Source: a virus
Lineage: Duplodnaviria; Caudoviricetes
Reading direction: 5' to 3' (one strand)
DNA: 50,707 nt
IMG/VR virus record: IMGVR_UViG_3300036801_000089
Location: 1 to 50,707 of that record
Positions 3,091-46,121 of this stretch are shown piece after piece (position 1 is the first letter of the stretch; each line of letters starts with the position of its first letter). Both the position numbers and the translations under genes were made by a program. The notes beneath the pieces are model-generated. The model was given only the letters and a program-made list of their open reading frames with translations. It had not been told where the DNA came from and made no database searches.

Positions 3091-3597
3091 ATGGCAATCA
3101 ATGTCAGTTTAGAGCGCACATTCCCAGGATTTGGTGTCTCCTCACTGCAATCCATCCAACGCGCCACCGGGATTGCCGTCAGTTCGGGGACCACGTACTA
3201 CGTTCCCGGCACATCTTCGAACAGCGTGGCCGGACTCTTGGTGCCCACCGTCACGGTAGGGCGAGTGCGCGTGAAGGTCTACAACGGCAGCGGCACATCT
3301 CCAACGCTGACGAAATTGCAGATCATGGGCTTCGACGGAACGAATAGCGTCGTGATTGCCGACTGGAACTTTGGCACGGCGGTTACGCTGTCCTCGACGA
3401 GCTGGGCCGACCTGATGACTGACTTTATCTGCGATACGGCGCCATCGACGACCAGCGGCGGTGCAGTCGGGTTTTTGATTGGCAGCGCCAGCGCGGTCAC
3501 TGGCAACGGCGGGATTCAGTGCATCAAGGTCATTCCAACGCTGGGCGGCACGGGTCCAGCCTGCACGATGGACGTAGAGATTTTCGGCCTCATTTGA
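3091..3597 (+). CDS. putative capsid decoration/cement protein
   Basis: G/T/S-rich beta protein right after the capsid gene; AGGAG RBS. Confidence 0.5.
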   Translation: MAINVSLERTFPGFGVSSLQSIQRATGIAVSSGTTYYVPGTSSNSVAGLLVPTVTVGRVRVKVYNGSGTSPTLTKLQIMGFDGTNSVVIADWNFGTAVTLSSTSWADLMTDFICDTAPSTTSGGAVGFLIGSASAVTGNGGIQCIKVIPTLGGTGPACTMDVEIFGLI

Positions 3598-3616
3598 GGC
3601 GGGAAACAATTCTCCA

Positions 3617-38055: not shown

Positions 38056-38656
38056 TCTCTAAATCAGGCGAAACAGGCGAACATATTGTAAATTCTCCGC
38101 TCACCTGCTACCCTTTTGCCCGTGTCCAAGCTAACTACAGACCGCACTCTCAAAGCCAGATTGACGGTCAGGCGCATGCGCATGTCGTTGCCATTCGCGG
38201 CCCGTCGCGCATGGGGTTTGCGCTTGCAGGCCATCAAGGGTGGACGCGCAGTCCAACGGCTGTACAAGCTACGCGGTGAGCATCCGCTCGTGAAGTACAA
38301 CGAAGAACGGCGAAAGTTAAAGTCTCTTAAAATGAATGAGATACAAAAGCCACGTTCAGGAAGTACGCTTCATTTAGAGTGAAGTGCAACAAAGCAATAG
38401 ACTTCCACCAACACATATTGTTGTTTATCAGACCATGTTGGGCATCCGTCTGCCGATGCGTTGCTGTTTAATTGCCGATCGATTGCCACGCGAACGGCGG
38501 GCGATTAGCGCGCGCACCACACACGCCGGCGGACAAGCTTTCCGGGTACCCTTTGACCTAATTGGCAAGCCCCCGGCCTGTTTATGCGGGTTCAGGGAAG
38601 ATCGCTTCCACTAGGCCCTCACAGAAATCAGGGTGGTTTCATGCCCAAGTAGAATA

Positions 38657-38709
38657 TGTGACAGGTGTGACAGAATCTACTTGACAAGGTGTGACGAGTG
38701 TGACAGATT
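38657..38709 (+). promoter_or_regulatory. promoter with four TGTGAC direct repeats (putative RHH operator)
   Basis: TTGACA(38681)-N17-CAGATT, 7 nt before the ATG; TGTGAC at 38657, 38666, 38690, 38699. Confidence 0.6.
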
Positions 38710-38716
38710 GCGGGGC

Positions 38717-39142
38717 ATGGCAGCACTCCACATCCGTGACATCAGTGACGCATTATTAAAGCAGTTGAAGAAGGATGCGGTCGAGTGTGGATTGACGCTG
38801 AAGCAGTATGTGGTTGGGAAGTTGGCAACGCCGAGCGGGAGCGGGGTAGTGAAACAGGATCACGCGAGCCTCATAAGCTCGAATTCCGAGTGCAACTCTC
38901 GGCTCCGCAACCAGAATGAGGTAGAGGATGAGGAATCCCGAGAAGATCAAGATAGTGGAGCAATGGACGTGCCTAGGAGTGAGGCGGTACCAACGGTTAG
39001 CGGACGGGAGCCTGCTAGAACTCGAAAGCGGAAGCCTGCTGGCAAAAGAGCCGGTAACGGTGATAAACCGACCTGCATCCACGGAGCCGAGAAGGGGTAC
39101 TACTGCGGGATGTGTGGAGGGAAAGCGAAGATCGTCGAATGA
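38717..39142 (+). CDS. RHH regulator with disordered linker and C-terminal Zn knuckle
   Basis: MAALHIRDISDALLKQLKKDA..CGLTLKQYV (RHH); CIHG....CGMC at the C-terminus. Confidence 0.6.
   Translation: MAALHIRDISDALLKQLKKDAVECGLTLKQYVVGKLATPSGSGVVKQDHASLISSNSECNSRLRNQNEVEDEESREDQDSGAMDVPRSEAVPTVSGREPARTRKRKPAGKRAGNGDKPTCIHGAEKGYYCGMCGGKAKIVE
38840..38913 (+). tRNA. tRNA with CAT anticodon (Met/fMet-like)
   Basis: Cloverleaf: acceptor GCGGGG/CTCCGC with A1:A72 mismatch; D stem GTGA/TCAC; anticodon arm CGAGC-CTCATAA-GCTCG; T arm CCGAG-TGCAACT-CTCGG; encoded CCA. Confidence 0.85.
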
Positions 39143-39152
39143 GGGGTGAGGA

Positions 39153-40184
39153 GTGAAAGCCGCGATAGTTCTGACCTCGATCAACGACTGCGAAGAACTC
39201 CTCGACGGGTACCTTGATAATCTCAGCAGGTTTGGACGCGAAGCCAGTATTATTTTAATACCGGACATGAAAACGCGAGCGCAGAGGATTCGCAAAGCGG
39301 TCAAGTGTCCGACGATGGGGGAGCAAGATTCATTCCTCAAGATCGTGGGTTTACCACCGCAAGAAATCCCTTTCAACTCCGACAATCGCCGCAACGTAGG
39401 CTACCTGATGGCGCTGGTCGAAGGCGCCGAGATGATTGTGTCGATCGACGATGATAACTTCTGCCCAGTGAGCGAAGACTTTATCGGGGCGCACCTCGCG
39501 GCGCTGGAGAAGCACAACCCACTAGTCAGCACTGAAGATGGCTGGTACAACAATTGCAATCTGCTGAAAATCATGGGGCGGGAGATCTTCGCCCGCGGAT
39601 TCCCCTACTACGCGCGAAAACCGTTCAAGATGCACACACAATACGCGCAAGATGGGGAAGTGGTCATTAATGCGGGGATGTGGACAGGCGCGCCGGATGT
39701 GGATGCGATTACCTGGCTCCAGCGTCCCGGACACGTGGCGCGGTGCACGGGCAATGCGGTGTTGGCTCCCGATACTTGGTGCCCCATCAATTCACAGAAT
39801 ACGGCAGTGCGGCGGGACGCGATGGCCGCATATTATTTTGTGTGCATGGAAGCGCCGATTGATCGCTACGGAGATATTTTTCAAGGGTACTTCGCATTGA
39901 AGTGCGCGAAGCACTTAGGATTGACGGCGCGGTTTGGAACTCCAGTGGCGACGCATCGGCGTAACTCGCACAACTATCTGGCCGACGCGGAGAAGGAAAT
40001 TTTCGGGATCAGGCTCATGGAAGAATTGCTTCCGAAGTTGGTTGAGCATAAACTGACGGGCAGTTCGTTCGGCGAAGCGTACTTGTCGCTCGCGGATTTT
40101 ATCGAATCGCAGGACGCACAGTTTTTCAAGAACACGGCGCGCCGAATGCGGCTGTGGGCTACGACGTGCCAAAGGATCGGATGA
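39153..40184 (+). CDS. RGP/STELLO-like GT-A protein (UDP-arabinopyranose mutase-like)
   Basis: RRNVGYL.A....IVSIDDDN, GMW.G.PDVDA, PINSQNT and RYGDI motifs. Confidence 0.7.
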   Translation: MKAAIVLTSINDCEELLDGYLDNLSRFGREASIILIPDMKTRAQRIRKAVKCPTMGEQDSFLKIVGLPPQEIPFNSDNRRNVGYLMALVEGAEMIVSIDDDNFCPVSEDFIGAHLAALEKHNPLVSTEDGWYNNCNLLKIMGREIFARGFPYYARKPFKMHTQYAQDGEVVINAGMWTGAPDVDAITWLQRPGHVARCTGNAVLAPDTWCPINSQNTAVRRDAMAAYYFVCMEAPIDRYGDIFQGYFALKCAKHLGLTARFGTPVATHRRNSHNYLADAEKEIFGIRLMEELLPKLVEHKLTGSSFGEAYLSLADFIESQDAQFFKNTARRMRLWATTCQRIG

Positions 40185-40231
40185 AAGCTGAACACCTTTC
40201 TGTGAAGTGGTCGAAGGCATCGTAGGCCGAA

Positions 40232-40897
40232 ATGAGAATGCTTGATTTATTTTGCGGACGTTGGGGCTGGAGTAAATCCTTTGCTCTGCGCGGGTGGCAT
40301 TGCATCGGTCTTGACTTGGTGCGCCCACCTGAGATTCCGTTTGCGAACTGCGAATTCATCTGTGAGGACATTCTCAATGTCGACGCGCGTTGGGTTAACA
40401 ATGACAGATTCGATTTCATCTGCGCTTCGCCGCCGTGCCAGCAGTTTTCGGTGCATGGCATGAAGCACTTCCATCCGAATCCGCCGTACCCGAAATTGGG
40501 CATTCAGCTATTCGAGTATACGCGGAGAATTTGCGAGGAATCAGGCGTGCCTTACGTGATTGAGAATGTGCGAGCGGCACAGCAATTCGTGGGCAATGCC
40601 GTGCATCACTGCGGGCCGTTTTATTTGTGGGGAACGGGAGTGCCGCCGCTGGTAAGCCGCGGTGTGAAAAAGGGCATTGATTGGGGATCGTCAAAGGCCG
40701 TGAACGCCATGGCAACTCAGGAAGAAAAGCGCAAGTATCGTGACAAGCCGTACTACCACAACCGCGCCTTTTCAATGAGCCTCAAGCGCCATGAAGATCA
40801 GGCCCGAGTGGCCACGATCCCGCCCGAACTTTCCAACGCCGTGGCCGATTATGCCAAGAGGCTTTTGGAACAGAGAGCGGTGAGCACGGCATCGTAG
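40232..40897 (+). CDS. C5-cytosine DNA methyltransferase (short form)
   Basis: LDLFCG..G (motif I), SPPCQ (IV), IENV (VI). Confidence 0.8.
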   Translation: MRMLDLFCGRWGWSKSFALRGWHCIGLDLVRPPEIPFANCEFICEDILNVDARWVNNDRFDFICASPPCQQFSVHGMKHFHPNPPYPKLGIQLFEYTRRICEESGVPYVIENVRAAQQFVGNAVHHCGPFYLWGTGVPPLVSRGVKKGIDWGSSKAVNAMATQEEKRKYRDKPYYHNRAFSMSLKRHEDQARVATIPPELSNAVADYAKRLLEQRAVSTAS

Positions 40898-40926
40898 GCC
40901 GAAAAGATTTGGGGCTAAAAGCTGAC

Positions 40927-41121
40927 ATGTCGATTGGAAACCCAAGCGAACACTATGCTCTGCTTTCAGAGCTGGAATATTTTCACATGGACCGTGAACA
41001 ACTAATTTTCGTAACGATTTGCAGGGAGCTAACGAAGCGAGGAAAGATTCAACCCTTTAAAGCGGCGCACCTCGCGGAAATTGTCGAGGCTGAACTTTTG
41101 CGGTGGGAAAAGTGGCAATGA
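40927..41121 (+). CDS. hypothetical protein
   Basis: Lies between 20-bp repeats. Confidence 0.45.
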   Translation: MSIGNPSEHYALLSELEYFHMDREQLIFVTICRELTKRGKIQPFKAAHLAEIVEAELLRWEKWQ

Positions 41122-41174
41122 AAGATTTGGGGCTAAAAGCAAAAGACCCGTAACGGACATTTGGGAGGCGGACA

Positions 41175-41459
41175 GTGAAAATTTCCAAGTGGGTTGACAT
41201 GTCACAGGAAGTAGAAATTGAAATTGGCTGTGACGACATCCGCGGTGCACTAGCGGAACAGTTTGCCATCGTCGCGGTTGACGGGTCGCATGCGGGCGAA
41301 CTGACGTTGGCGTTTAGCTGCATCGCTAAGTTTTTTAATGCCCTCGCTGATGAACAGATAGCGTTATTGACCATCAATCAACGCCGTGTCGTTGGGAACT
41401 ACCTGAGCGATCAGGCCAAGCGATTCGCAATCACCGAAGTTGCGGGCCACGCGGTCTAA
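41175..41459 (+). CDS. hypothetical protein
   Basis: GGAGG RBS. Confidence 0.55.
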   Translation: MKISKWVDMSQEVEIEIGCDDIRGALAEQFAIVAVDGSHAGELTLAFSCIAKFFNALADEQIALLTINQRRVVGNYLSDQAKRFAITEVAGHAV

Positions 41460-41553
41460 CAGAACCAAGATTTGAGCACGGCGACCGAGCACGCAGCACC
41501 AAAGTAGAGTTGCGGGCCACGCGGTTTCAGAAAAGATTTTTGGGATAAAACCT

Positions 41554-42912
41554 ATGGCTAAAGTGATCCTTGCTGGCGGTCCAAGTTTTGCCCTGTTCAA
41601 CCCGTCGCTTCACGCGAGCCTTGGGCTTCTCTACCTCGCATCTGCCCTGCGCGAAGTAGGCCACGAAGTTAAAATAATCGACTGCCACAAAATTTCCACG
41701 TTCGATCCCGAAACCAACAAACTGATCGTCCGCCACGAGGACATGGAACCCTGCGACATCCTGGGCGTGTCGATCGTTACCCCGAACGCGGAGTTTGGCG
41801 GGCAGCTCGCCGCGGCGTGGCCGGCGAAAGTGAAAGTGGCTGGCGGGCCGCATGTGACCTACATCATCGAAGGGCCGCACGCGCACTTCAAGCAGAAGAA
41901 GTATTTCGAGGGCTTCGATTTCCTGATGACCGGGGAGTGCGAGGAATCGTTCGTCGAGTTTTGCAACAAGTGGGACCGGGGAGAGGATGTAACCAAGGTT
42001 GCTGGTGTGGCATGGTTCGGGCCGCTCGGGATGCAGCACCTTCCCTCACCGCCGCTGCCTGATGTGACGAAGATGAAAACTCCCGCATATGATCTGTGGG
42101 GAAATTATTCTAAGGGAGGGCTTAATGTCACTTCCATTCACGGGACCAGTATCGACGTGGCAGAAAGAACCATCGGCTCCCTCTGGACCGCAAGAGGATG
42201 CCCCTACGGTTGTTCCTTTTGTGCCGACGCCCGAACCAAACTTCGAGAAGAAACCTTTGACCAAATCGAATCGGAAGTCAAAGCCCTTGCCGAAATCGGA
42301 GTAACGGCGTTACGCGTTTGGGATGATGTGCTCACGATTAAGGCCAAGCGTTGCCGGGAACTCGCGGCACTCTTCCACGACTACGGAATGCTGTGGCGCG
42401 GCTGGAGTCGAGTGAACTTGATGGACCCTCAGCTATTCAAAGACCTCGCTGCTCTCGGTTGCACCGAAATGGGATTTGGCGTAGAGCACGGCTCGCGTCG
42501 AATGCTGAAGGCGATGAACAAAGGGACAACACCAGAGGCGAATACCAAAGGGGTGAGGCTCTGCCAAGATGCGGGGATCTCGGCTCGCGCCTACTTGTTG
42601 ATTGGTTTTCCCGGTGAAACTTGGGAGTCCATCGAGGAAATGCGGCAATGGATAGAAGATTGCCACCCCGACGCTGCAAGCCTGCACATGTTTCAACCAT
42701 ACCCAGGGTGTGAAGTGTGGAACGTGCCGGAGAAATTCGGCGTTACGATTCCACCCGATTCGTTCTCGAAGATGTGGGAACTAAATGATGACGACCCCAG
42801 CACAACGGTTCTTGATCTTCCGACTATGAACACAGCAGAATTATTTGAAGCCCGAAAGATGCTCCACAACTGGATTACCGAAAATATCTCTCTGCGTTTG
42901 GCTACCCGTTGA
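41554..42912 (+). CDS. cobalamin-binding radical SAM enzyme (class B methyltransferase-like)
   Basis: SLGLLYLAS.L and GGPH (B12 domain); RGCPYGCSFC (CxxxCxxC); G.E.GS; IGFPGET; PYPG. Confidence 0.9.
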   Translation: MAKVILAGGPSFALFNPSLHASLGLLYLASALREVGHEVKIIDCHKISTFDPETNKLIVRHEDMEPCDILGVSIVTPNAEFGGQLAAAWPAKVKVAGGPHVTYIIEGPHAHFKQKKYFEGFDFLMTGECEESFVEFCNKWDRGEDVTKVAGVAWFGPLGMQHLPSPPLPDVTKMKTPAYDLWGNYSKGGLNVTSIHGTSIDVAERTIGSLWTARGCPYGCSFCADARTKLREETFDQIESEVKALAEIGVTALRVWDDVLTIKAKRCRELAALFHDYGMLWRGWSRVNLMDPQLFKDLAALGCTEMGFGVEHGSRRMLKAMNKGTTPEANTKGVRLCQDAGISARAYLLIGFPGETWESIEEMRQWIEDCHPDAASLHMFQPYPGCEVWNVPEKFGVTIPPDSFSKMWELNDDDPSTTVLDLPTMNTAELFEARKMLHNWITENISLRLATR

Positions 42913-43622
42913 GACTCAGTATTATTTTAATAGGCCGCTCCGATAATTACGGCGGCGACTTCGTAGGCCGCTTAAACCGCTCACTGGAAAGCATCATGCC
43001 GCTCGGTGCCGAAGTGATCTTCGTCGAGTGGAATCCGCTCGGCGACCGCCCGCGCATCAACACTGAGATTCGACATCGCGGCGTGCGCATCATTACCGTG
43101 TACCCGGAAGTTCACCGCTCGCTGCCGGGACATGAATTGTTTCCAGTATTCGAGTACCGCGCAAAGAACGTGGGGATTCGCAGAGCAAAGGGCGACTGGA
43201 TTCTGTGTCTAAACTCGGACATCATCCTGAGCGAACAAATGCTGCGGTGCCTCACTTGCTCATTCGATGACACCTGTTTTTACCGAGCGCGGCGGCACGA
43301 CATGGACGGCGAGAGACTGGTGCAAATCTGTGATGGCCCAGGAGACTTCGTACTTATGCACAGGATTCGCTGGAACCATCTTCGCGGATACCTTGATCTG
43401 GTAAGCTACACACACCTTGACTCGCTGCTATTGTGGAATGCGCTCGACGCGGGCCTGCAAGATGCGAGGCTTGAGGCTCCCATCATCCACCAGGAGCACG
43501 ACCGCAGCGAACACAAACTGCGAACCGGAATCCATTCCAGCGACATGCCCAAGTTTATCGGAATGAAAAACGACGAGGATTGGGGACTCGCAAACCATCA
43601 ACTGCCCGAGGTGACGACGTGA
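42909..43622 (+). CDS. GT-A (family 2-like) glycosyltransferase
   Basis: R.D.YGGDF..R, AKNVGIRRA.GDWIL..NSD, GDF.L, HQEH. Confidence 0.8.
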   Translation: MRLSIILIGRSDNYGGDFVGRLNRSLESIMPLGAEVIFVEWNPLGDRPRINTEIRHRGVRIITVYPEVHRSLPGHELFPVFEYRAKNVGIRRAKGDWILCLNSDIILSEQMLRCLTCSFDDTCFYRARRHDMDGERLVQICDGPGDFVLMHRIRWNHLRGYLDLVSYTHLDSLLLWNALDAGLQDARLEAPIIHQEHDRSEHKLRTGIHSSDMPKFIGMKNDEDWGLANHQLPEVTT

Positions 43623-44629
43623 AGGTTGGCTTGCTATACCCGACAGTCGGTGCTCTCGTAGAAAAAATGGCGGCAATTTTCCCCGGACTCACCGTCATAG
43701 GCCCGCCCTGCGACGATCTCTACAAATGGGATAAGCGCATCCTGCCGCTCGCCAAGGCCAACGGACGCATCGCGGAGTGGAAGGAACTGGGCCTCGACAT
43801 TCACTTCGAGGAAAAGCCCTACAGCGAATGCGACTTCTCGAAGTTCGATCTACTGATCGAATCGGTCGAAACATTCAACTACGCTGCATCGTGGCGCGAG
43901 CACTGCACACGTATCGAGTGTCCCATTATCGTGTTCGTCTGCTGGTACGATTCCCCAGCCTACCTTCCGCACGACTACCTCAAGAAAATAGAAAACTTCC
44001 CAGTCCTGCTCGGGATGCCTTCGCACTTGAATGCGTGGCGCGCTGCGCTGCCTGACGTGAACCCCGCTGCTGTTCCGGTAGGCGACTGGTGGTTCGAGCG
44101 TCCGTGGACAGGAGTGCGCGAGGAAGCCTTGTTCGTGCTAGCGGGCAAGGACATCTGGCGCCCTGCGGACAAGACGGTGTGCGGCGTGGATCTGTGGGAA
44201 AAACTCTGTGAACGGTTTCCAGGAAAGATGCACCACCACGACGGAGCGATCGACTTCAAGACCTCGAAGCAGATGGCCGAGATGTGCAGCGAGTATCGCG
44301 TGTTCGTGAACCTCGACCGCAGCGGTGCGCGCCCACTGTGTACCTCGTTTACGGAAGCGGTTGCTGCGGGAATGCCCGTAATAGCTCGGAATCAGCCGGG
44401 ATTGTCCTACAAGGATTACATTAACGGAAACGGGGTCTGCACAGATAATTTCGACGAGATGTGTGATTTCATTGAGCAGTGTTTTGAAAACATGGAGTTT
44501 GCGCGGGAGTGCAGCCGCCAAAGCCGTAAGATTGGCAAAGCGTCATTCTCGGTCGAGGCGGTGCGCCCGACTTACGAAGAGGCGGCGGTGCGCGCGATGG
44601 CCGTGTTTCACCAGGGGCATTGGCGATGA
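43619..44629 (+). CDS. GT-B (family 4-like) glycosyltransferase
   Basis: YRVFVN...SFTEAVAAGMPVI...NG motif. Confidence 0.75.
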   Translation: MKVGLLYPTVGALVEKMAAIFPGLTVIGPPCDDLYKWDKRILPLAKANGRIAEWKELGLDIHFEEKPYSECDFSKFDLLIESVETFNYAASWREHCTRIECPIIVFVCWYDSPAYLPHDYLKKIENFPVLLGMPSHLNAWRAALPDVNPAAVPVGDWWFERPWTGVREEALFVLAGKDIWRPADKTVCGVDLWEKLCERFPGKMHHHDGAIDFKTSKQMAEMCSEYRVFVNLDRSGARPLCTSFTEAVAAGMPVIARNQPGLSYKDYINGNGVCTDNFDEMCDFIEQCFENMEFARECSRQSRKIGKASFSVEAVRPTYEEAAVRAMAVFHQGHWR

Positions 44630-45456
44630 TCTCCCTACTTCTCCCATCCCGCAAGCGCCCGGAGATTTTCGCACGCATGGTCGAATCGGTAAGAAAGACC
44701 GCGATAAAATATGTCGAGATTGTGGCTATGTTTGATGAGGACGACGAAGCGAGTGCCGAGGCTGCGAAGGTTGATCCCAAGACATGCGCCGATATTATTT
44801 TAATAGGACCGCGCCTGCGCCAGATGACCGTATATTGGAATCTATGCTTCGATCATTGCAAGGGGGCGATTGTCTGCCAAGCAAACGATGACATGGTGTT
44901 CACCACAAAGGGTTGGGATGTAATGGTCGAGGATGCCTTCGCAGCGGTGCCCGACAAGATCATGCTGGCGCACGGCTCCGATGTATTCGGTCACGGCAGT
45001 AACTTTGGACCGCACGCCTTCGTAAGCCGAAGGTGGGTCGAAGCACTGGGATATTTTATCCCTCCGTACTTTTCGTCAGATTTCGGCGACGCTTGGATTT
45101 GCGAGATAGCGAACATGCTCGGTCGCCGGCGCTTCCTGAATTTCAACATTGAACACAGACATTTTTCCCACGGCATGATGGAGCTGGACGAGAACACAGC
45201 CGAACGGCTCCAGCGGCACCGCGAGGATGATCCCGAAACGCTGTACTACAGTCCAGCGATGCAAGCGGAACGGCAGCGCGACGCTGAGAAACTAGCGAAA
45301 CTCATGGACAAAAACCTGAGCACAAAGGGCTGGTGCCCGCCGCATTCGAACATACGAAGCGCGGGGATGTGCCCGCATTGCGAGAGCCTGTCGACCGTGG
45401 CAGTGGGCGTGGGGAAGTTTTTTTGCAACCGCTGCGGAAAAGACTTCGTGAGATGA
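44626..45456 (+). CDS. GT-A glycosyltransferase with C-terminal zinc ribbon
   Basis: ISLLLPSR.RP, NDD, T.GWD, D.W..I, IEHRH; tail CPHCESLSTV...CNRCG. Confidence 0.8.
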   Translation: MISLLLPSRKRPEIFARMVESVRKTAIKYVEIVAMFDEDDEASAEAAKVDPKTCADIILIGPRLRQMTVYWNLCFDHCKGAIVCQANDDMVFTTKGWDVMVEDAFAAVPDKIMLAHGSDVFGHGSNFGPHAFVSRRWVEALGYFIPPYFSSDFGDAWICEIANMLGRRRFLNFNIEHRHFSHGMMELDENTAERLQRHREDDPETLYYSPAMQAERQRDAEKLAKLMDKNLSTKGWCPPHSNIRSAGMCPHCESLSTVAVGVGKFFCNRCGKDFVR

Positions 45457-46121
45457 AACTCGAACTCCTAATCCTTAGTATGCCAACCCGCGTAGAATTT
45501 CTGAAGCGGTTGCTTTTGTGTCTTGCACGTCAACGTGAGGGAGTTGGGAACGTAGCAGTGCGGATCAGAACATGCGATCCAAGCCTTACTCTCGGGGAGA
45601 ACCGCGAGCTATTGCGACGGGCTTCCAATGCCGAGTACATTGCTTTCGTCGATGATGACGATCTCGTGGCTCCAGATTATGTGTCCACAATTCTGCCACT
45701 ACTTGACGGCGTGGACCAAATTGGTTTTGAACTTCAATGCTATATCGACGCAGTAGCCCTGCCAAAAAAGACTATTCATTCATTGAGGCATACCGGATGG
45801 TTTGAAAATGCACTCGGATATTTTCGGGACATCTCGCATCTAAATCCGATGCGGCGCGAACTCGCGCTACTTGAACCGATGGAAGGCGGGCACGGAGAGG
45901 ACAAACGATGGTCGGATCGGATGCGCGGGAAGGTCAAGACGGAACACTACATCCCGCGAGTCATGTACCATTATTATTTTAATACGAAGAAGAATCAGGG
46001 TGCGCCGTGCCCGAAATGCGCGAGCGAATCAACGGTGCTGGTCGAGACGGGAACATGGTGCAACGGCTGCGGGGTTCTGTTTTCGGAACATCCTATTCAG
46101 AAGTCGTGTCTTTGGGTGTAG
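45453..46121 (+). CDS. GT-A glycosyltransferase with C-terminal zinc ribbon
   Basis: LGENR..L, EYIAFVDDDD, GED..W; tail CPKCASESTV...CNGCG. Confidence 0.8.
   Translation: MKLELLILSMPTRVEFLKRLLLCLARQREGVGNVAVRIRTCDPSLTLGENRELLRRASNAEYIAFVDDDDLVAPDYVSTILPLLDGVDQIGFELQCYIDAVALPKKTIHSLRHTGWFENALGYFRDISHLNPMRRELALLEPMEGGHGEDKRWSDRMRGKVKTEHYIPRVMYHYYFNTKKNQGAPCPKCASESTVLVETGTWCNGCGVLFSEHPIQKSCLWV

Follow-up and report, generated by a model that had tools for sequence, protein, structure and literature searches.

An in-frame tRNA-Met gene of a virus-specific family inside the linker of a phage regulator gene

In bacterial mixed tRNA-protein operons and in mitochondrial tRNA punctuation, tRNAs are co-transcribed with mRNAs and are freed by RNase P. 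A coding region that is itself divided by tRNA genes is described for the mitochondrial rps3 of the eustigmatophyte Vischeria, whose variable region, according to an excerpt of the source, is split by a stretch with two tRNA genes (PMC13060386). Here we analyze a virus record of 50,707 bases (IMG/VR IMGVR_UViG_3300036801_000089; the window, meaning the whole stretch of DNA and the whole record), in which a complete tRNA gene with anticodon CAU lies on the sense strand, in frame, within a regulator gene that has a ribbon-helix-helix (RHH) domain at one end and a Cys/His knuckle at the other. A word search of open-access text turned up neither a phage tRNA described as lying in frame within a coding sequence (CDS) nor an uninterrupted phage CDS whose two conserved domains enclose a complete in-frame tRNA gene.

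The DNA encodes a family-typical tRNA together with an uninterrupted regulator that has both of its conserved domains. We think it probable that this lineage, on a single occasion, captured a member of a phage-specific tRNA-Met(CAU) gene family in the disordered linker of the regulator, and that the position of the tRNA gene is a tolerated accident of tRNA gene mobility, not a selected switch.

A complete tRNA gene within a two-domain regulator gene

The original prediction had placed a complete tRNA at 38840-38913, and these coordinates proved exact. Rfam model RF00005 matched 38840-38910 on the plus strand over its full length (model positions 1-71 of 71), scoring 50.2 bits against a gathering threshold of 29 (E-value 1.1e-9 for an 801-base search, 7e-8 for the whole window), and was the sole Rfam family above threshold in the window; an encoded CCA occupies 38911-38913, within an AACCA at 38909-38913 that also supplies the discriminator A73. 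The stems measure 7, 4, 5 and 5 bp, with 20 standard pairs and an A1xA72 mismatch as the sole exception, and the 7-nucleotide (nt) anticodon loop CUCAUAA, with U33, presents the anticodon CAU. Folding of 38841-38913 gave the cloverleaf as the structure of minimum energy, at -25.1 kcal/mol (z -2.28), and 6 of 200 shuffles were as stable. E. coli genomes gave no match to this tRNA.

The surrounding frame runs without a stop from the ATG at 38717 to the TGA at 39140-39142 and encodes 141 amino acids (aa), bearing out the claim that no stop precedes the tRNA and that the reading frame passes straight through it. The open reading frame (ORF) listing gives 38633..39142 from an upstream GTG, and homologues start at the residues encoded from 38717. 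In an exhaustive HMMER search, 30 proteins matched the regulator at E <= 1e-3, many of them aligning along its full length (for example P0003, P0006, P0013, P0014 and P0027). Members of this family combine in one chain an N-terminal RHH of the type M(A/P)xL(H/N)IR and a C-terminal C-x-H-G-x3-G-x2-C-x2-C-G-G knuckle, and both ends of the window regulator match this one family in the same frame.

An alignment of 25 sequences made the two domains more definite. The RHH motif (A/P)xLxIR is present in the window protein (MAALHIRDISD...), with L4 and I6 at least 90% conserved, and the CxH...CxxC knuckle, which had been called plausible from the sequence, is a conserved feature of the family, with C120, C130 and C133 invariant and H122 at least 90% conserved. 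The linker between them is highly variable in length and sequence across the family. Searched against PDB, the family profile matched RHH antitoxins (7e4j_A, E 9.2e-5; 3h87_C, 6.7e-4; ParD 2an7_A, 0.008), and the Pfam FitA-like RHH family (PF22513) scored 16.4 bits (E 0.0091), below its cut-off of 27. The knuckle matched no Pfam family, and its similarity to ribosomal protein bL32 was non-significant (E 0.12-0.9). AlphaFold, run with the family alignment, predicted helices at residues 11-24 and 28-37 with predicted local distance difference test (pLDDT) scores above 90 and the knuckle at pLDDT 94; the linker was predicted as coil at low to moderate pLDDT, with a minimum (<50) at residues 45-52, within the stretch encoded by the tRNA. 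By these alignments and models, ORF 38717-39142 is a genuine two-domain regulator gene.

Position 1 of the tRNA coincides with the first base of codon 42 (38840 - 38717 = 123), and the tRNA stretch is translated as SGVVKQDHASLISSNSECNSRLRNQ, residues 42-66. These residues stand opposite gaps in most of the 24 other aligned family members. The closest homologue, P0001, has a nearly identical RHH N-terminus and stays nearly identical through ...PSG, diverging at tRNA position 1. At the DNA level, similarity to other tRNAs of the family described below is confined to 38838-38919 and reaches at most 85% identity.

A public gene call at this locus kept a 59-aa tail and lost the two-domain regulator: residues 83-141 recur with 100% identity as the 59-aa database entry P0002, and evidently the caller retained the part after the tRNA alone. 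Because gene finders mask tRNAs before CDS calling, nested cases of this kind would be systematically hidden.

Close relatives of the ORF were absent from IMG/VR with either a single protein or a small alignment as query, and no relative of the regulator was found among GTDB genomes. Two overlapping frames were set aside. An antisense ORF (38756-39394, minus strand, 212 aa) that spans the regulator and the start of the glycosyltransferase gene had no Pfam match and overlaps homologue-backed genes, and is probably a chance frame; a +1-frame ORF at 38928-39149, also lacking a Pfam match and overlapping plus-strand genes with homologues, was treated likewise.

A virus-specific tRNA-Met family with G55

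The T loop of the nested tRNA, UGCAACU, has G at position 55 and so differs from the canonical U54-U55-C56, which is near-universal among tRNAs. We defined a family by its D arm, GTGAAACAGNATCAC, combined with its T arm, GTGCAACTC, which contains this G55 T loop. The window matches the definition exactly at 38849-38898 and also has the CAT anticodon, an unpaired 1:72 position and A73-CCA. The combination of the two arms occurred in 55 IMG/VR contigs versus 2 contigs among 185,579 prokaryote genomes (one genome per species, 185,579 species), and the anticodon was CAT in 54 of the 55 viral copies. Exact or degenerate patterns extended over the anticodon arm gave no viral matches; the D-arm plus T-arm pattern was the one that succeeded. 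A word search of open-access text found no description of a G55 tRNA-Met family in print.

To 26 distinct copies we added 2 canonical phage tRNA-Met genes for a covariation alignment of 28 sequences. Pairing was present in 91.9% of the cells of this alignment, and both sides varied in 16 of its 21 pairs; none of 500 shuffles reached either value, and slid controls fell to 34-45% paired. By this measure the family is under structural selection. Position 1:72 is unpaired in 23 of the 28 sequences. G55 is common to every family copy by selection with the T-arm motif; the microvirus copy described below was found independently, by BLAST. Because the family stems covary and because both traits occur in free-standing copies, G55 and the 1:72 mismatch are family traits and not signs of decay in the window copy.

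This bears on whether the nested element might be a relic, that is, a pseudo-tRNA from which no tRNA is produced any more and which persists only as 25 linker codons. We consider this unlikely, though several features would fit it. With default settings ARAGORN reported no tRNA in the window; G55 and A1xA72 depart from canonical tRNAs; the Rfam score lies just below the range of annotated Stenotrophomonas-phage tRNAs (51.5-69.1 bits) and about 12 bits under the nearest annotated relatives (61.8-61.9 bits); and the anticodon stem departs from the family majority. Set against this, both oddities are present in free-standing family copies, no stem pair is broken, all 18 invariant and all 19 nearly invariant family positions are kept, and CCA and A73 are retained. 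The ARAGORN result, which had been proposed as a check of the tRNA, came out divided, negative by default and tRNA-Met(cat) at the 95% threshold (-ps95), and the same pattern runs through the family: the default called 33 of 59 copies and missed 26, the window included, so that 25 other members likewise lie just below the default threshold, and all 59 were called at 95%.

Bacterial initiator tRNAs are marked by a 1:72 mismatch, three G:C pairs at 29:41, 30:40 and 31:39, and a purine11:pyrimidine24 pair. The window tRNA resembles bacterial tRNA-fMet in its CAU anticodon, unpaired 1:72, G2:C71, C3:G70 and A73. It differs from it in the anticodon stem (A29:U41, G30:C40, C31:G39, without the three G:C pairs), in having U11:A24 and not A11:U24, hence no purine11:pyrimidine24 pair, and in G55. 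The tRNA thus reads as initiator-like at its acceptor end only. The acceptor end of the G55 family raises the question why phages carry such tRNAs. Since the studied phages generally avoid encoding tRNA-fMet, as an excerpt of one study puts it (eLife 2023;12:e85183), an abundant initiator-like viral family would deserve a separate look.

The independently found copy, a tRNA-Arg(CCT) whose D arm and UGCAACU T loop are those of the family, lies in the 5.7-kb genome of Tortoise microvirus 6 (MK765556.1, about 3533-3605; L023 1193-1265). The microvirus record annotates a hypothetical-protein CDS that begins inside the tRNA (locus 1203-1418), which is probably an over-annotation.

Proposed origin of the nesting and expression of the locus

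The nesting is confined to the window wherever homologous genes could be read. No tRNA lay inside any of nine homologous regulator genes with readable DNA (L002 and L013-L020). The nearest phage by its downstream gene (L002, 83% DNA identity) has a 156-aa RHH-knuckle gene that begins with another RHH head and contains no tRNA; two additional ORFs separate this gene from the glycosyltransferase gene, and window positions 38650-39153 had no DNA similarity to L002. The other eight are metagenome loci with regulator-family genes, seven complete (98-124 aa) and one cut, and they contained no tRNA at E <= 1. Among ten related phage records, only two had any tRNA: the window and G003, where the copy is located elsewhere and has the anticodon CUA. 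No predicted protein of 77-247 aa shared words with residues 38-78.

Viewed from the tRNA, the result is the same. The 58 other tRNA-family loci comprise the IMG/VR and prokaryote-genome matches and the microvirus locus. Elsewhere, stop codons lie close to the family copies: no frame is open across 13 of the 58, and for only two (L032 and L041) does an open frame extend by 60 nt or more on each side, in neither case with recognizable domains. Neither the RHH nor the knuckle motif was found at any of the 58 loci or at L021. The nesting looks unique to this phage lineage.

The G003 tRNA, in a 56-kb relative with terminal repeats (G003:C1:43713-43785; L021 1501-1573), is of the amber-suppressor type and scores 52 bits; it has two anticodon-stem mismatches, a T loop CGCAAAU (also G55) and an encoded CCA, and received no ARAGORN call. 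The region around the regulator behaves as a variable cassette between conserved flanks: window 38650-39153 holds one regulator gene with its tRNA, and the corresponding L002 2751-4001 has another RHH-knuckle gene together with a Cys-rich ORF of 84 aa and two further ORFs. Other cassettes appear in contigs from metagenome runs, one joining 38631 to 38950 (X3) and one joining 38656 to 39159 with 1649 letters between (X2).

In the explanation we favor, a tRNA gene from a family mobile among phages would have landed where the regulator can accept nearly any sequence, by an insertion that preserved the frame and introduced no stop codon. Transcription would proceed from the operator-flanked promoter (Table 1), with the regulator as the first cistron of the glycosyltransferase block, and each transcript would meet one of two fates. 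A ribosome reading through would produce the 141-aa regulator, with the 25 tRNA-encoded residues tolerated in its linker. Alternatively, the cloverleaf would fold and RNase P and 3'-end nucleases would act on it, freeing the tRNA and cutting the mRNA between RHH and knuckle. That excision would sever the regulator mRNA, as had been proposed, follows from the geometry, which puts both maturation cuts between the two domains. The 5' fragment would then be a stop-less RHH message, and the 3' fragment would hold the internal ATG at 38963, with GGAG 5' of it, and the glycosyltransferase genes.

Several points weigh against a single tolerated capture of a working tRNA gene. Two of the three frames across the tRNA are stop-free, so an open, in-frame outcome is not rare; by our own estimate, a random insertion would stay open and in frame roughly once in 4-5 cases. 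Because the 74-nt span is no multiple of 3, the event cannot have been a clean insertion of the tRNA alone. The G55 in place of the near-universal U55 and the rejection of the gene by default ARAGORN also count here, and it is from covariation alone that we infer function for the entire tRNA family. The regulator, known from a single genome lineage, could be a recently disabled gene that stays open, and both products are known here from DNA sequence alone. Finally, a 151-letter freshwater record (X4 record 23) is identical to 38816-38913, covering 24 nt of regulator linker and the entire tRNA, and diverges right after CCA; the X4 run contributes such short 151-letter pieces alone, and we use this record as a hint. 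It may be that the RHH-tRNA junction is older, occurs in another genomic context as well and has undergone recombination where the tRNA ends at its 3' side.

That exact divergence at the tRNA 3' end would also fit an attachment site. Phages commonly integrate into tRNA genes, and the element might be the attP or an att scar of a temperate phage integrating into a host tRNA-Met gene. We find this extremely unlikely. Tyrosine and serine recombinases (PF00589, PF00239) were each found in 0 of 5 records, the window and four near-complete relatives, with positive controls, a negative that for the window itself covers its 91%-complete sequence and leaves a gene on the missing part possible. The four relatives measure 55-56 kb, and three of them have direct terminal repeats. 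The tRNA type is, moreover, virus-specific by the contig counts given above, and E. coli offers no counterpart.

An assembly chimera or a sequencing error could likewise have opened the frame artificially, and the record is indeed a metagenome assembly of a single lineage. Contigs of soil metagenomes contain the window sequence. However, two contigs, from metagenome runs X1 (record 3, 38560-39700) and X3 (record 18, 38614-39062), bridge the locus and cross both regulator/tRNA junctions with 0 differences; X1 may be the source sample of the window record. In addition, the two protein domains share one frame, as they do in homologues. We give an artefact scarcely any credence, and the sequencing error that had been named as grounds for rejecting the nesting was not borne out.

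Operator-like and promoter-like signals precede the regulator. Two direct repeats, TGTGACAGGTGTGACAGA and TGTGACGAGTGTGACAGA, are 89% alike, lie 33 nt apart and flank a TTGACA box, and an inverted repeat overlaps them; together they are likely the operator of the RHH protein. A sigma-70 consensus scan of 38300-39400 returned no promoter-like sites, and it misses the promoter listed in Table 1 because the second hexamer fails the rule of at least 4 of 6 matches. The ATG follows the -10-like box by about 7 nt and has no usable Shine-Dalgarno spacing, so the transcript may start at or next to the ATG at 38717, giving a leaderless or near-leaderless mRNA.

Table 1. Features of the regulator locus in the window
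Feature	Position	Strand	Evidence
RHH-linker-knuckle regulator CDS, 141 aa, stop included	38717..39142	+	homologue search, alignment, AlphaFold
RHH DNA-binding domain, residues 1-38	38717..38830	+	P0001 N-terminus, PDB profile matches, AlphaFold
Complete tRNA gene, anticodon CAU, encoding residues 42-66	38840..38913	+	Rfam, fold, ARAGORN at 95%, family alignment
Remaining variable linker, acidic then basic, residues 67-119	38914..39073	+	aligns with linkers of P0004, P0007, P0012 and others
Putative in-frame internal start ATG (Met83), GGAG just 5'	38963..39142	+	59-aa product P0002 in public gene call
C-terminal Cys/His knuckle CIHGAEKGYYCGMCGG, residues 120-141	39074..39139	+	alignment, pLDDT 94
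Operator-like repeats: 18-nt direct repeats 38657-38674 and 38690-38707; 18-nt inverted repeat 38646-38663 / 38666-38683	38646..38707	.	repeat search
Promoter-like TTGACA (38681-38686), 17-nt spacer ending TGa, CAGATT (38704-38709)	38681..38709	+	read from sequence
RGP-like glycosyltransferase, first downstream gene, 10 nt after regulator stop	39153..40184	+	Pfam RGP E 2.1e-17; 83% DNA identity to L002

From its position and the operator-like repeats at its own promoter, the regulator would control the downstream operon. It does precede a putative glycosylation block, as had been noted: glycosyltransferase-rich genes begin 10 bases after its stop, and the block extends to about 46121 with radical-SAM/B12 and further glycosyltransferase genes (Pfam; PHROG glycosyltransferases).

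These signals bring the selected switch into view. By that account RNase P excision and regulator translation would be exclusive by design, and their balance would set the level of the regulator and hence of the downstream glycosylation block. The geometry does make the two fates exclusive for each transcript, operator-like repeats lie at the regulator's promoter with the operon starting 10 nt downstream, and after a cut the knuckle half could still be expressed from the internal ATG at 38963 with its GGAG. Relatives do not share the arrangement, however. The tRNA is present in 0 of 9 homologous regulator genes, a long open frame surrounds at most 2 of the other 58 family tRNAs, none of which adjoins this regulator, and in L002 the same downstream gene is used with a regulator that has no tRNA, two additional ORFs lying between. 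The original prediction's mutually exclusive products, understood as a selected switch, therefore find no counterpart in relatives, and the comparison it proposed, which looks in relatives for a stop ahead of the tRNA, is not applicable, as those relatives have no tRNA. A mechanistic switch is possible in this rare arrangement and unsupported by conservation; as a selected device we regard it as improbable.

A related and still less probable reading, which we hold to be very unlikely, is that the nested tRNA is a working member of an undescribed virus-specific initiator-like tRNA-Met class, with G55 and an obligate 1:72 mismatch, and that its position in a probably leaderless VapB/FitA-like RHH mRNA is functional, each transcript giving rise to the regulator or else to an initiator-type tRNA together with an uncoupled operon mRNA. 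If this were true, expression of the glycosylation genes would be tied to the host's translation-initiation and tRNA-processing state, and the tRNA might also counter toxins that cleave initiator tRNA.

Beyond this locus, the window has an estimated completeness of 91% and its genes include a major head protein, a large terminase, an HNH endonuclease, a replication initiator and a clamp-loader-like ATPase, alongside the glycosyltransferase and radical-SAM block (Pfam, PHROG). Besides the RGP-like gene, positions 39153-46121 include four glycosyltransferase-like genes and genes for a B12-binding radical-SAM enzyme and a truncated-looking C-5 cytosine methylase of 221 aa, which matches profile positions 1-113 of 324 only. 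The block may serve DNA or surface glycosylation.

Comparison with known tRNAs, regulators and operons

Apart from the nesting, the analysis points to a widespread virus-specific tRNA-Met family of which standard tools miss about half (33 of 59 called by default ARAGORN). If both products of the nested locus are made, it would be a natural case in which a single DNA segment, read on one strand, both specifies a structured RNA and codes for protein, and it would offer a simple system for competition between ribosome and RNase P on one transcript.

Among annotated phage tRNAs, the closest to the window tRNA are the tRNA-Met genes of Stenotrophomonas Menderavirus phages (Bhz51, Ps15, YB07, BUCT608 and Yut2), with 77-80% identity over its whole length, followed by those of Rhizobium phage RR1-A (77%) and of Mycobacterium phages such as Bongo (73%). 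They share with it the D arm type, the anticodon CAU and A73-CCA, and compensatory changes separate it from the Stenotrophomonas phage copies in the acceptor, anticodon and T stems. These annotated genes are free-standing, often in arrays, with a canonical UUC T loop and a paired 1:72, whereas the window tRNA, located inside a CDS, has G55 and A1xA72. With the G55 family it shares identical D and T arms, CAT, a mismatched 1:72 and A73-CCA, at up to 85% identity.

The regulator, in turn, resembles RHH antitoxins and repressors (FitA/VapB-like, ParD) in its N-terminal domain, by the PDB profile matches and a weak Pfam similarity. Unlike RHH antitoxins, it has no adjacent toxin gene by Pfam and PHROG annotation, and its C-terminus is a Cys/His knuckle in place of a toxin-binding tail.

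As in mixed operons and tRNA punctuation, a sense-strand tRNA lies within a protein-coding transcript, and cutting it out would part the coding segments on its two sides. Operons and punctuation of that kind have the tRNA between coding regions; in the window it stands inside one, in frame, between two domains of one conserved protein. In Vischeria, the two halves of rps3 lie in different frames and, in the excerpt of the source cited above, are taken as separately translated (PMC13060386), whereas the frame of the window regulator is continuous across its tRNA.

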